Assembly: GCA_964344785.1 (NCBI GenBank)
Contig: CAYFOR010000001.1
Location: 22,723-86,722 of the forward strand
Direction of reading: 5' to 3'
DNA length: 64,000 bases
From: an uncultured Piscirickettsiaceae bacterium
Lineage (GTDB): Bacteria > Pseudomonadota > Gammaproteobacteria > GCF-002020875
Below the pieces are notes generated by a model. It made no database searches. It was not told where the DNA came from and worked only from the letters and a program-made list of their open reading frames with translations. Positions 59,666 through 64,000 of this stretch are shown piece after piece (positions within the stretch are counted from its first letter, which is position 1; each line of letters starts with the position of its first letter). Made by a program: the position numbers and the translations under genes.

Positions 59666-61015
59666 TTATGCGCTCTTGCGCTCATTCCACTTGGCTACCT
59701 CCTCATCCCAGCCATCCATACGGACATAGGAGGATTGACGTGGGTTGTCGACCATCTCAGGCTCGACCTCAAGACCCATACCCTCCAGGTAGGCCGGCAG
59801 GCCGATTCGCTCGATCATCTCACCGGAACGCTCATGCTCCAGTGCATTCTCGGCAAAGAAGTCGACGTGGTTCTCGGAGAGCTCGATGAACTCTTCGATC
59901 TGCTCCTCGGTCTCCACCTTCATGAACGGAACAATCACGGTACCGAAGGTGTCACCAATCTTCAGTGTACGCTTGCCGCCCATCAGAATGGTGATCCCCT
60001 TGTCATCACCCTGTGCCAGAATGGCGTCACCATCCTTGCCTACATATTTCTGACTGACTGAGGAGACCACATTGATACAGTGCATGCAGCGTACACACTG
60101 ACTGTTTTCGATGGTCAGGCTATTGTCATCGGCCATCTCCATGCATTGACCGGGGCAGCGGCTGATCACGTTGTCCATCACATGCTTCACGCCTTTGTCG
60201 GCCACGTAGGCCTTCCACCCTTCCTGGTTGATCTTGATATCATCACGCCAGGTACCGATCACCGCCATATCCGCACGCTGGATTGAATTGGTGCAGTCGT
60301 TGGGGCAGCCGGAGAACTTCCACTTCATCTTGTAGGGCAACGCCGGACGGTGCATGTCATCAAGGAAGCTGTTAACGGTGGTGCGCTGCAGATTGCCCTC
60401 ATCGAAGCAGGACTGCTCGCAGCGGGCCGCACCGACACAGGCCACTGAGGTACGTACCGCAGGGCCGGCACCACCGAGATCAAAGGCCAGATCATCGGCG
60501 ATATCCTTGAAGTTCTCGGCATCGTTGAACTTGTCGAAGGCGACCTGTACGCCATCGGTATCGGCACCCTGAAACATGATGTCACCCGACTGCCCATGCA
60601 GGGCAATCAGACCGGTGCCGGTCTCTTCCCAGAGATCACACATACGACGCAGCAGCGCAGAGTTATAATGGTTGCCCCAAGGTGGCATGATACGCAGTGT
60701 GTGGAACTCCAGCGCATCGGGGTACATGGTCTCGCCCTTCTCATCCTTCAGCTCGGAGAAGCGGGGGATAATACCGCCACCATAACCAATCACACCCACC
60801 GTACCGCCCTTCCAGTAGCCGCGACGGTTGATGAAGGACTGCTCCAGCGTACCGATGACGCCGCGCATCATCTTGGCCTGCAGGGCATCGCCGGTAGCCA
60901 GACGCTTCAGGCCGGAGACATAGCTTGGCCATGGGCCCTTTTCCAACTCGTCCAGATTCGGGGTGGGAATATCCAGCTCAGGGCTGACCGCGTTTAGCTT
61001 GGTTTTCTCTGACAT
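59666..61015 (-). CDS. dsrA: Dissimilatory sulfite reductase alpha subunit
   Basis: 449 aa; LEKGPWPSYVSG N-terminus, sirohaem-[4Fe-4S] Cys motifs (CVGAARCE, CPNDC), CVRCMHCIN ferredoxin motif identical to A. vinosum DsrA. Confidence 0.9.
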   Translation of the reverse strand: MSEKTKLNAVSPELDIPTPNLDELEKGPWPSYVSGLKRLATGDALQAKMMRGVIGTLEQSFINRRGYWKGGTVGVIGYGGGIIPRFSELKDEKGETMYPDALEFHTLRIMPPWGNHYNSALLRRMCDLWEETGTGLIALHGQSGDIMFQGADTDGVQVAFDKFNDAENFKDIADDLAFDLGGAGPAVRTSVACVGAARCEQSCFDEGNLQRTTVNSFLDDMHRPALPYKMKWKFSGCPNDCTNSIQRADMAVIGTWRDDIKINQEGWKAYVADKGVKHVMDNVISRCPGQCMEMADDNSLTIENSQCVRCMHCINVVSSVSQKYVGKDGDAILAQGDDKGITILMGGKRTLKIGDTFGTVIVPFMKVETEEQIEEFIELSENHVDFFAENALEHERSGEMIERIGLPAYLEGMGLEVEPEMVDNPRQSSYVRMDGWDEEVAKWNERKSA

Positions 61016-61491
61016 TTGTAAGGCGCTCCTTAACGTTTACCAGTCAATACACGTTTGTTTCATTACTCCTCTCCGGCCTTGGGAAATCAATGCCTCTGCC
61101 ATGACCAGAGAAGTACTGTTCTTTACGATGTTCGATCACCACGATTGAGCCGATACTCATCGACTCATCTCGAATGGAGCACGAAGTATGTCAGAGCACT
61201 TTTTTCGATTCAACGCCGATTCAACACGCAATCGGGATACCCCATCTATCCCCAATGGGATACTTCATTATCGTTTCATAATAAAATCATGATATTAATG
61301 ATCGATACAAATTAAGCATATAATCTCCCCTCTTGTATTTGGGAAAAAAACCCTTAATCTACAGTAAAAAAGTTGGTTATTAATGTAACTGCATACACGT
61401 TCCACAACCCGGCTTGGCAACCGTTCAGGCAGCCCATGGAACACAACATTGTAAAGATAAACATATTTTGAATATTCCAGAGTGAGCCAGG
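61016..61491. promoter_or_regulatory. Divergent regulatory region / long dsrA leader
   Basis: A 476-nt AT-rich non-coding gap between dsrA and the divergent plus-strand genes. It carries direct repeats CGATTCAAC x2 (11-nt period) and GGGATAC x2. Confidence 0.4.
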
Positions 61492-61677
61492 ATGCTAAAT
61501 TTAAGTGAAGTGCTGATGGAAAAGCAGCACGAGATGGAGACCTTCGAAGATCTGGAACGCGCAGTCCATGATATGGCGCGCGAAAAAAATGAACGATTCT
61601 TTCGGATCGATGTGCGCCCCCCCTTTACGGACACCCCGGATAACTGGGAAGACCGCCTTGAAGCAGCCTTTTACTGA
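61492..61677 (+). CDS. Small acidic hypothetical protein (61 aa)
   Basis: ORF-track ORF with charged, protein-like composition, divergent from dsrA; weak RBS. Confidence 0.35.
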   Translation: MLNLSEVLMEKQHEMETFEDLERAVHDMAREKNERFFRIDVRPPFTDTPDNWEDRLEAAFY

Positions 61678-62368
61678 GATTGAGGGTAGAGCATTGAACA
61701 GTAACATCCCATCAGACCCGCTTACTAAAGAAGACCAGGAGTCAAAAGAGAGCCGCCTGGCTGACCTGGAGCAGCAATTGAGTGGGCTCCCATCTTCTGA
61801 TGAGCGCGCACAACTTCTACTCGATTACGGAACGCTGCTACTCGATTTTCAACGGAAGGAAGACGCCTGGAGTGCTGCCAAGGAGGCATTTGACCACTTC
61901 AGCACGACAGCTGATTGGGAGCTGGCAGTCACCGCTACCGATATTCTGGTCTCATCCGACCAGAAGGCATCACTGATTGCACTGGCCCATGGTATCTGGC
62001 TTGGTATCACCTACCCGATTAACCCGGAGACCACAGTAGCCATCCTTCAGCACATGGTTGATGAATCACCCGCCGGTTCGGATACAGCCGCTGTGGCAGC
62101 CGTAACGGCCCACTTTATCGCCGATAAACGTGGTGGCGATGACAAGGCCGGTGAGAATATTCGCTTCTTTACCAGTCAGCGTCTTGCAGAGGTTGCCTCG
62201 CAACACCGCAATATCAAAAACCAGGAAGAGTTCGATATCTGGATGATGGGTAATGAGTTCGACAACCCCGACTCTTTTCTACCCAAGCTTTCTGCAGCGG
62301 TCGATGCGCTTGCTGATGGTCACTGGTGGATTGACCGGGATTCACTGCGAGCCGCTCTTCCACAGTAG
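61568..62368 (+). CDS. Hypothetical protein (225-266 aa, start uncertain)
   Basis: The track ORF overlaps the 61-aa ORF in another frame. A better start is TTG at 61694, 7 nt after GAGGG and 16 nt after the small ORF's stop. No motif recognised. Confidence 0.45.
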   Translation: MIWRAKKMNDSFGSMCAPPLRTPRITGKTALKQPFTEIEGRALNSNIPSDPLTKEDQESKESRLADLEQQLSGLPSSDERAQLLLDYGTLLLDFQRKEDAWSAAKEAFDHFSTTADWELAVTATDILVSSDQKASLIALAHGIWLGITYPINPETTVAILQHMVDESPAGSDTAAVAAVTAHFIADKRGGDDKAGENIRFFTSQRLAEVASQHRNIKNQEEFDIWMMGNEFDNPDSFLPKLSAAVDALADGHWWIDRDSLRAALPQ

Positions 62369-62378
62369 GTTGCAGGCC

Positions 62379-63065
62379 ATGAGCTACTGGCAAGAGGAGA
62401 CAAAAGAGCAGACGGTTGTCATCGATGACAGCGTGATCGATCTGAGCTTCCGAATCCAGTGCAAGGCACTGCCGGTAGACCATGGCTGGGCACTCAGTCA
62501 GGTAGTACAGCAGCACATACCCTGGTTTGCAAAAGAACCCCACGCCGCACTCCATCAGATCCTGGTAGCAGAGTCTGGAAATGGCTGGTTCTCTCCTGAG
62601 CAGGGCGACGCCCTACTCTATCCTTCGCGCAGAACCCGCCTCATCCTGCGCCTGCCAAGGCATCGAGTCGAAGAGACAAAAGATAGACTGGATGGAGCCA
62701 CACTACCGATATCGGGCCACCCCTTGCAGTTGAGCCGCCCGGAGACTCAAATGCTGAGCAGACATACCACGCTATATACCCGCTTTGCCCTGTTTGCAAC
62801 CAACGAAAGTGAAGATACCTTCATGGAACGCACCAGAGAAGAGCTCGCGATCAGGGAAATCTATCCCCGAAAGATGGTATGTGGGCGCATGAACCGGATA
62901 CAGGTTGCCGACCGGGAGCGAATCACACACAGCCTGATGCTGGCTGATCTGACCCCGATGGAGTCCCTGAAACTGCAGCAACAGGGGCTTAGTGAGGGCA
63001 AGGATTTTGGCTGCGGGTTGTTTTTACCCCACAAAACCGTGGAAAATCGACTCCAGCAGGAGTAG
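62379..63065 (+). CDS. Hypothetical protein (228 aa)
   Basis: ATG 11 nt after the upstream stop; Arg-rich; C-terminal Gly-rich stretch GLSEGKDFGCGLF; no confident family call. Confidence 0.45.
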   Translation: MSYWQEETKEQTVVIDDSVIDLSFRIQCKALPVDHGWALSQVVQQHIPWFAKEPHAALHQILVAESGNGWFSPEQGDALLYPSRRTRLILRLPRHRVEETKDRLDGATLPISGHPLQLSRPETQMLSRHTTLYTRFALFATNESEDTFMERTREELAIREIYPRKMVCGRMNRIQVADRERITHSLMLADLTPMESLKLQQQGLSEGKDFGCGLFLPHKTVENRLQQE

Positions 63066-63099
63066 AAATTCAAATATCAACAACAAGGAGAACGTAAAG

Positions 63100-63438
63100 A
63101 TGAGCTACGAAGTCAATGGAAAGACCATCGAAACCAATGCCAATGGATATCTTGAGGAAACGGATGACTGGAGCGAAGATGTTGCCCAGGTCATTGCAGC
63201 GGAAGAGGGCGTTGAACTGACAGACAAACATTGGGATCTGATCAACTTTCTGCGTGATGAGTTCCTCAATAACGGAGGCAACCAGCCCAATGACCGCAAC
63301 ATCGTCAAGGCGATGTCGAGCGCTTGGGGAGAGAAGGTCAACTCCAAGGATCTCTATGCCCTGTTCCCCAAGCAGCCATCCAAACAGGCTGGCAAGATTG
63401 GCGGTCTTCCAGAGTCTCGCCGCAAAGGAGGATACTGA
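63100..63438 (+). CDS. DsrC/TusE-family protein lacking both conserved cysteines
   Basis: 112 aa; RBS AAGGAG 9 nt upstream; core conserved with DsrC/TusE (NGYLEETDDWSEDVA..ELTDKHWDLINFLRDEF...KAM...GEK..SK.LY.LFP..P.KQA.KI.GLP), but the C-terminus is ...GGLPESRRKGGY with no Cys. Confidence 0.8.
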   Translation: MSYEVNGKTIETNANGYLEETDDWSEDVAQVIAAEEGVELTDKHWDLINFLRDEFLNNGGNQPNDRNIVKAMSSAWGEKVNSKDLYALFPKQPSKQAGKIGGLPESRRKGGY

Positions 63439-63582: not shown

Positions 63583-63605
63583 CCTGGCAACTGCCGGGTC
63601 TTTTT
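63583..63605 (+). terminator. Weak hairpin + T-run (possible terminator of the plus-strand dsrC-like operon)
   Basis: cctggca-ac-tgccggg followed by tcttttt; the stem is imperfect (U-G pair) and the loop short. Confidence 0.25.
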
Positions 63606-63619
63606 CATTGAGAAATCAA

Positions 63620-64000
63620 ATGGCCGCCCCCTCCACCTCAGACCTGATTGAGTCTCTGCGCAACCGTTTTGCTGCCGGTGAGGTGATCCCTGAACTTGAT
63701 CAACTTGAACAGCGGCTGCTCCAGAGTGAACAGCAGACAGAGTTGCAGATCCGGACCAAGACCCGGCACCTGGCACAACAAGCTGCATCACTTCGTATTC
63801 TCTATGATGTAGTTGCCAGCCTTAACAGCTCGGAGAATGTCCGGGAGCTGCTACTGCGCTTTCTCTCCTTTCTGAAGGAGATGGTAGGCGCCGATGCAGC
63901 CACCATCCGTCTTCTGACCCGAGACAACCAGATGCGCCTGCTCTCCAGCATCGGCATGGCCGAACAGCGTGAACAGCAGAAGGGGATGATTCCGGTTCGG
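63620..64000 (+). CDS. Partial N-terminus of a GAF-domain-type sensor/regulator; continues beyond the window end
   Basis: ATG 63620, open through 64000 in frame (127 codons), not in the ORF track (no stop). A coiled-coil-like N-terminus is followed by LRILYDVVASLNSSENVRELLLRFLSFLKEMVGADAATIRLL, which looks GAF-like. Confidence 0.4.
   Translation, partial: MAAPSTSDLIESLRNRFAAGEVIPELDQLEQRLLQSEQQTELQIRTKTRHLAQQAASLRILYDVVASLNSSENVRELLLRFLSFLKEMVGADAATIRLLTRDNQMRLLSSIGMAEQREQQKGMIPVR

Follow-up and report, generated by a model that had tools for sequence, protein, structure and literature searches.

The reverse dissimilatory sulfite reductase (rDsr) pathway is one of the main biological routes of sulfur oxidation, and little is known about how it is regulated or which accessory factors it uses. 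The C-terminal arm of its DsrC protein carries the motif AGLPKPTGC (PMC8477390). By convention, DsrC homologues without cysteines, a recognised class termed RspA-type, are presumed to have a regulatory role (PMC8477390, PMC9371685). One member assigned to this class is MHY1_00075 of Methylovirgula thiovorans, a DsrC-like gene without CysA that is located three genes from dsrQ-dsrAB (PMC9371685). A tauD-like gene divergent from dsrA received the name dsrQ from Lenk et al. 2012, according to PMC7596348. The gene is widespread in aerobic chemotrophic sulfur oxidisers and has no known function (PMC7596348; for function also PMC6018796). The subject of the present analysis is a unit of four genes, likewise divergent from dsrA, at positions 61492 to 63438 of a 64,000-nt stretch of DNA (the window) from an uncultured Piscirickettsiaceae bacterium (contig CAYFOR010000001.1).

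At the dsr promoter, the four genes form an operon that is conserved widely and is centred on a Cas6 protein no longer tied to CRISPR (clustered regularly interspaced short palindromic repeats). It combines known kinds of component, namely Cas6, DsrC/RspA and dsr accessory genes, and is not a new kind of system. Nor has it gone wholly unnoticed, as dsrQ has been named (PMC7596348) and a Cys-less DsrC in its neighbourhood has been placed in the RspA-type (PMC9371685). In the literature search, no paper was found that connects Cas6 or Cmx6 to dsr genes, and none describing the small acidic protein, the tetratricopeptide repeat (TPR) protein or the RKGGY tail discussed below. The favoured explanation, with a probability of roughly 40%, is that the four genes serve the oxidative Dsr pathway as an accessory operon, whose products would form a soluble regulatory or adaptor complex that does not carry sulfur. 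The only named gene among those of the operon is its optional first gene, dsrQ, and a role for the operon would fill a gap in the model of the pathway.

Layout of the unit and its four proteins

All coordinates refer to the window, with strand signs relative to the window as read. Four open reading frames (ORFs) lie in the same direction on the + strand. ORF1 (61492..61677, +) encodes a small acidic protein, s, of 61 amino acids (aa) with an isoelectric point (pI) of 4.5. ORF2 (61694..62368, +) encodes a TPR-like, all-helical putative adaptor, u, of 224 aa from a TTG start; an alternative TTG at 61658 gives 236 aa, identical in sequence to the public gene call P0001. ORF3 (62379..63065, +) encodes c, a CRISPR-independent protein of the Cas6 family (repeat-associated mysterious proteins, RAMPs) of 228 aa, and ORF4 (63100..63438, +) encodes d, a Cys-less DsrC paralogue of 112 aa. 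The intergenic gaps are 16, 10 and 34 nt, and the terminator scan gave no convincing internal terminator within the unit; the layout is therefore operon-like. A Shine-Dalgarno sequence, AAGGAGAA, is located ahead of ORF4. The divergent partner is dsrA (59666..61015, -; TIGR02064 470 bits, cut-off 392.85), separated from the unit by an AT-rich spacer of 476 nt. All four ORFs are conserved coding genes, as seen from the homologue counts of ORF1 to ORF3 and the PF04358 match of ORF4. The coordinates of the unit, its arrangement divergent from dsrA and the acidic 61-aa product, all described in an earlier reading of the DNA alone (the original prediction), were confirmed.

The same prediction held that the two proteins of about 225 aa belonged to no recognisable family. 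This is incorrect for ORF3, which matches PF09559 with 179.8 bits (cut-off 26.7, E 7.6e-53) and TIGR02807, the model of type I-MYXAN Cas6/Cmx6, with 109.2 bits (cut-off 98.85). On these matches c is a Cas6/Cmx6-family protein, and 2398 homologues were found. A search of the PDB with a profile of 26 orthologues returned a single real relative, 8fcj chain B (E 2.6e-22), which is the Cas6 of a type I-B CRISPR-associated transposon. The hallmarks of Cas6, two ferredoxin-like/RRM domains and a C-terminal G-rich loop, are present in ORF3, and its Gly-rich loop is the G-rich loop of the RAMPs.

The protein is equal in length to the CRISPR Cas6 of types I-B and I-MYXAN. It also shares the C-terminal G-rich loop (GLGxxRxxGCGLF against GIGGKRKMMCGIF). 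Differences are found in a loop ESGNGWxRP inserted in the c clade, in a His for Asn at position 35 and in PHK for PAT behind the G-loop. In further contrast to CRISPR Cas6, c has a near-neutral pI and is paired with a 60-aa acidic protein. The motifs DH (34-35), H59, SGNGW (66-70) and PHK (217-219) are specific to the clade and, together with several Arg, are invariant across 51 orthologues of 43-71% identity. His35 is positioned at the start of helix 1, and His218-Lys219 follow the G-loop.

The other difference from CRISPR Cas6 is the absence of a CRISPR array and of any other cas gene nearby. Scans with TRF (Tandem Repeats Finder) and for direct repeats found no array in the window or in 89 related loci (1.44 Mb including the window), and the precomputed Pfam maps of nine loci contain no cas3, cas5, cas7 or cas8. 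A repeat at 1-230 of locus L046 was rejected as an array, being a perfect 55-nt tandem repeat of four-plus copies at the contig start with no unique spacers. With no array, no cas genes, strong purifying selection and new invariant motifs, c represents a clear case of RAMP exaptation, and its clade offers a defined system for asking what else the Cas6 fold can do. In databases c is named as a type I-MYXAN CRISPR-associated protein and is misread as evidence of a CRISPR system. An iron-sulfur or other metal site formed by three near-invariant Cys of c was also considered and rejected, as the L003 orthologue has no cysteine.

A domesticated Cas6 may still bind, and perhaps cleave, a specific RNA hairpin, and an RNA-directed regulator of this kind is the main rival to the favoured explanation, though doubtful. 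Its target might be a transcript from dsr or from elsewhere in sulfur metabolism, or else a tRNA; d with its basic RRKGGY tail would join the ribonucleoprotein, and the acidic s would antagonise or chaperone the RNA site. The protein retains the Cas6 fold with its G-rich loop, the invariant His35, His218-Lys219 and several Arg are as expected of a nuclease, and exaptation of the one activity known for the fold would be parsimonious. TusE-family proteins act on an MnmA-tRNA complex (PMC3397948), and in two Beggiatoaceae-type loci the genes of s and c are found amid translation genes. Against an RNA target, no CRISPR-like repeat, Rfam match or conserved non-coding motif was found beside the unit. 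The Rfam scan, at a permissive threshold, gave chance microRNA matches only and no known RNA family, and no conserved non-coding motif was found between c and d, downstream of d or upstream of s. Nor are the proteins basic. The module is conserved in hundreds of sulfur-oxidising species, but it is rather unlikely that the domesticated Cas6, s and the Cys-less DsrC/TusE paralogue regulate dissimilatory sulfur oxidation by binding or processing RNA. If true, the RNA reading would for the first time give Cas6 a physiological role independent of CRISPR, and would add a new layer of post-transcriptional control to rDsr.

The fourth protein, d, matches PF04358 (E 9.5e-34) and TIGR03342 (102 bits, cut-off 53.5), which places it in the DsrC/TusE/DsvC family. 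Its C-terminus is GGLPESRRKGGY and it contains no cysteine, in agreement with the earlier description of a DsrC/TusE-fold protein without redox cysteines. Cysteine is absent altogether from 65 of 69 d orthologues, and all 69 end in the RKGGY tail. Identity to the DsrC of the window is 47% over 103 residues, including the GLP hinge of the arm, and the best solved relative is Allochromatium vinosum DsrC, 1yx3 (E 2.9e-21); d is closest to oxidative DsrC. With 1yx3 it shares the family PF04358/TIGR03342. Unlike DsrC, it is without both redox-active cysteines, and its arm is two residues longer, basic and terminated by RKGGY instead of PTGC(V/I). The penultimate CysA and upstream CysB of a functional DsrC are therefore both missing, and assignment to TusE fails as well (NF008562 103.7 bits against a cut-off of 191; no cysteine).

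A DsrC fold without conserved cysteines is the mark of the RspA-type, and by published convention d would be filed there (PMC8477390, PMC9371685). The RspA-type is a catch-all class, defined by the absence of cysteines and with a presumed regulatory role. What sets the d subgroup apart is its RKGGY tail together with its linkage to a Cas6-like gene, and neither feature was found described. The original prediction had also allowed for a DsrC family unrelated to sulfur and found without dsr genes; instead, d belongs with the dsr-linked unit.

The small protein s has 393 homologues, which share the near-invariant motif DV(R/K)PP..DTP.NWEDRLE.AF. No family was found for it in Pfam or NCBIfam. Some NCBI records of 58-61 aa (P0318, P0340, P0366, P0370) name it ‘sulfur relay protein DsrC’. 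The name was rejected, as it has neither support from hidden Markov models (HMMs) nor any similarity to DsrC, and is an annotation error under propagation. It is a second pitfall of annotation at this locus, alongside the CRISPR label of c.

For ORF2, the earlier statement that there is no recognisable family holds at the level of sequence models. No match was found in Pfam or NCBIfam, and no TPR model even at E up to 1; homologues number 41 by word search and 341 by profile. By fold, however, u is a TPR-like solenoid of helix-turn-helix repeats. The fold resembles peptide-binding TPR domains, including the KLC2 domain with its tryptophan-acidic cargo (3zfw among the matches). Long proteins in the weak tail of the ORF2 profile proved to be generic TPR regions of CHAT/AAA_16/NACHT proteins and gave no functional lead. 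A candidate natural fusion of s with the TPR protein (P0175) was also rejected, as its N-terminal extension is unrelated and probably reflects a wrong start. In a separate protein of 1039 aa (P0180), an ORF2-like TPR domain at residues 828-1038 ends a large membrane protein with a spermidine-synthase-like domain, which represents a genuine fusion or else an artefact of gene calling.

Distribution and gene content of related loci

Species representatives, one genome per species, were scanned and at least 561 confirmed Cas6-like loci were obtained. HMMs for the four proteins, together with Dsr references, were run on the loci. Figures on gene content cover the 80 best of these loci, with denominators of 63 loci with at least 5 kb of upstream flank and 78 with at least 1.5 kb of downstream flank. 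A divergent dsrA is present within 6 kb in 56 of the 63 loci, s in 58 and u in 38 (missing in 25). The DsrC paralogue ending in ..GGY directly follows the Cas6-like gene on its 3′ side in 66/78. The named hosts of the 80 best loci are sulfur oxidisers: Sulfuricaulis and other Acidiferrobacterales, Candidatus (Ca.) Thiodiazotropha, Sedimenticola, Thiohalomonas, Thiothrix, Thiolinea, Thioploca, Thiomargarita, Parabeggiatoa and Halochromatium. The nearest relatives of the window are metagenome-assembled genomes labelled uncultured Piscirickettsiaceae. Among the related sulfur-oxidising Gammaproteobacteria examined, most carry the operon at the dsr promoter; they include relatives of lucinid symbionts (Ca. 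Thiodiazotropha), Thiothrix, Sedimenticola, Acidiferrobacterales and purple sulfur bacteria.

In the loci without u, a gap of 4-10 nt separates the stop of s from the start of c, and s keeps its motif unchanged; at this spacing the two genes are translationally coupled. Two Beggiatoaceae-type loci (L088, L089) contain s and c alone among housekeeping genes, without dsr and without an adjoining DsrC-like gene. Their surroundings consist of translation genes, tuf-secE-nusG-rplKAJL in one case and aspS with gidB in the other. In locus L002, s is paired with u only. The obligate core of the unit is therefore s with the Cas6-like protein, and s is the common partner, because loci without u keep s and c, L088 and L089 have these two alone and L002 has s with u. 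The RKGGY DsrC paralogue is the usual third member, and the TPR protein, TauD/DsrQ and rhodanese are optional, lineage-specific additions.

Other arrangements are also found. In four Beggiatoaceae-type loci, the s-c pair is divergent from a PF03692 CxxCxxCC (YkgJ-type) protein instead of dsrA. This protein has about 291 aa (L028 7020-7898, L046 1816-2694, L068 8411-9289), or 325 aa in L040 (7227-8204). In Thiothrix eikelboomii (L070), the c and d genes are 8.6 kb away from dsrA-tauD. The proposal of an accessory module of the sulfur-oxidation system is upheld by the 56 of 63 loci with divergent dsrA; it does not extend to the whole unit everywhere, as the TPR protein is dispensable and the core pair is found away from dsr too.

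A TauD-family gene is first in the operon in 39/63 loci, the genomic position of the described dsrQ. The window departs from the dsrQ-type operon in this respect, as no TauD homologue was found anywhere in it and its operon begins with s. At the other end, a rhodanese is located downstream in at least 13 of 70 loci, plus the window lineage. These two neighbours suggest enzymatic handling of sulfur or sulfonate together with DsrQ and rhodanese, in which c would be an enzyme or carrier for an anionic sulfur compound. The many invariant polar residues of c, including the Gly-rich SGNGW loop, would suit such a role. In a more speculative variant, d would be cut at ..RKGG|Y, and the exposed Gly-Gly end would hold sulfur as a thiocarboxylate, like ThiS, MoaD and QbsE; the GG-Y terminus of d is invariant. 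However, no locus map contains an E1-like adenylating enzyme or a JAMM protease, and the invariance of the terminal Tyr argues for its recognition and not its removal. TauD and rhodanese are moreover optional, with TauD missing from the window, and an enzymatic role of this kind is improbable.

Two further observations concern the flanks of related loci. In Acidiferrobacterales (L006 9110-13102, L005 9134-10829), two proteins without a family, of about 375 and 185 aa, are encoded downstream of the unit and its rhodanese; in L006 they are preceded by an AAA (MoxR-like) ATPase and a DUF2201 protein. These downstream genes may represent a further conserved extension of the cluster. In the lineage without the TPR gene, about 4.7 kb separate the Cas6-like gene from a second type of DsrC-family ORF, which ends in DKGFGSVA and has no Cys motif at its end (L044 ~14784, L053 ~14633, L060 ~14681, L071 ~14765 and L072 ~14695, all on the - strand; also L064 ~11878).

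The spacer shared with dsrA and its palindrome

The control region between dsrA and the unit (61016..61491) has a GC content of 0.40. The equivalent spacer in 70 related loci is 155-1322 nt long, and all but one are shorter than 750 nt. Alignment shows blocks of sequence kept among close relatives, including a TATAAT-like box in the window lineage; the promoter scan of the region gave no match to the sigma-70 consensus. TATCCC and GGGATA are the commonest two hexamers of the dsrA spacers. In the window they form a perfect 16-bp palindrome, TATCCC-CAAT-GGGATA (61247..61262), the only perfect site in the window. A third half-site, GGGATA (61234..61239), lies 7 nt upstream of it and is kept in the window and in L008-L014.

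When two mismatches are allowed, 55 of 71 spacers contain TATCCC-N4-GGGATA. At a limit of one mismatch, the 1.34 Mb of loci yield 47 sites, 45 of them in a dsrA spacer at 72-315 nt upstream of dsrA. One further palindrome (L085) is upstream of an s gene at a contig end. The dsrA spacers that carry the palindrome range over L003-L087 and belong to distant sulfur oxidisers. Often a G-rich element (ATGGGG-like) is seen about 25 nt upstream of it.

The palindrome was also considered as a hairpin of the Cas6 type in RNA, and this was rejected. Its variable position shows the combinations C-A, U-G, C-U and U-A, so that pairing is kept on neither strand, and in L070 the palindrome remains with dsrA-tauD while the unit genes are elsewhere. 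For these two reasons it is read as a DNA operator, and both count against the RNA-directed regulator considered above, as C-A, U-G and C-U are incompatible with pairing on either strand and the site does not follow the unit. The spacer shows no unusual folding (z -0.06 for the + strand, -2.1 for the - strand). The palindrome is probably the operator of the divergent dsr promoters and as such provides a concrete handle on dsr regulation. Its conservation in the spacer fits the common control of the unit and dsr that the original prediction had drawn from their divergent arrangement.

A candidate reader of the operator is encoded after d in the window lineage. The window ends in the N-terminal part of a GAF-HisKA_3 sensor kinase (63620..64000, +; cut at the window end), whose membership of the unit is uncertain. 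The fragment matches the full kinase of L008-L013 with E 1e-48 to 1e-63. In L007-L013 and L052, a GAF-HisKA_3-HATPase kinase is followed by a NarL/LuxR-type response regulator and then by a single-domain rhodanese (the counterpart of the window neighbourhood is at 11217-13693 in L013). Most other lineages have no two-component system at this position. We take TATCCC-N4-GGGATA to resemble the 7-2-7 arrangement of NarL-type sites, and the link between this kinase with its NarL-type regulator and the palindrome is suggestive only.

Alternatively, d itself could be the transcription factor, an RspA-type protein that would bind TATCCC-N4-GGGATA and control both divergent promoters. A. vinosum DsrC reportedly binds dsr promoter DNA. 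The operator is conserved in the shared spacer, and a regulatory role is what convention assumes for Cys-less DsrC homologues (PMC9371685, PMC8477390). Several features speak against it, and direct control by d has a low probability. The protein is acidic, with a pI of 4.75-5.7, and the site is NarL-like in a lineage in which the GAF-HisKA_3 kinase and NarL/LuxR regulator are directly downstream; these points argue against direct DNA binding by d, without settling it. The operator of L070 is with dsrA-tauD, at a distance from the c and d genes. A DNA-binding d would also leave the Cas6-like protein and its partner unexplained.

Possible role of the unit and its surroundings

The reading as an accessory operon of the Dsr pathway is preferred because of the synteny with divergent dsrA, the position of d next to c, the conserved operator and the absence of both a CRISPR array and a conserved RNA motif. 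A complex that does not itself carry sulfur is favoured because d has no Cys, all the proteins are acidic or neutral and no RNA target was found. The range of pI across the four proteins, 4.1-8.7, would fit a protein complex better than a nucleic-acid binder.

Within such a complex, d keeps the globular DsrC core and would dock on the usual partners of DsrC (DsrAB, DsrEFH or DsrK). Its basic RKGGY arm, being inert, would neither accept nor deliver sulfur, and d would thereby modulate or cap these partners and not feed them. It may thus act as a regulator or decoy of DsrAB/DsrMK, as the original prediction had suggested. The Cas6-like protein and the acidic s may form a heterodimer, with the former RNA groove of c (the G-rich loop and invariant Arg/His/Lys) now holding s or a small anionic ligand. 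The TPR-like u is predicted to bind a short linear motif, either the tryptophan-acidic NWEDRLE stretch of s or the RKGGY tail of d. The former is a candidate because the TPRs of kinesin light chain bind motifs of this type, 3zfw being among the fold matches of u. The shared operator would couple expression of the unit to that of dsr and would probably be read by a dedicated transcription factor, not by the unit itself.

A functional analogy for this complex is DsrD, a small allosteric activator of the reductive DsrAB of sulfate reducers. DsrD is a small accessory protein encoded beside dsrAB that modulates the enzyme and carries no sulfur. There is no relationship of sequence or fold, and DsrD belongs to sulfate reducers, whereas the clusters here are of the oxidative dsrABEFH type.

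Certain points weigh against an accessory complex. The G-rich loop and a set of invariant His, Lys, Arg and Ser residues are preserved in the Cas6-like protein, and they resemble a site for catalysis or ligand binding more than a passive scaffold. To our knowledge, RNA binding and cleavage are the sole activity of the Cas6 fold. As the s-c pair is also found at a distance from dsr genes, its function is not necessarily specific to Dsr. A strongly basic arm fits oddly with the positively charged substrate channel of DsrAB. The interactions among the unit proteins, and between these and the Dsr proteins, are predictions from sequence.

On the minus strand beyond dsrA, NCBIfam models identify dsrB, dsrE/tusD, dsrF/tusC, dsrC, dsrM, dsrK, a DsrL-like flavoprotein, dsrP and a DsrN-like amidase. 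The dsr cluster of the window is of the oxidative type, dsrABEFHCMKL..PN. On the plus strand, a hairpin CCTGGCA..TGCCGGG followed by TCTTTTT is located at 63583-63606, about 150 nt past the stop of d and before the kinase gene. This hairpin, which the consensus scan did not report, may be the terminator of the four-gene operon.

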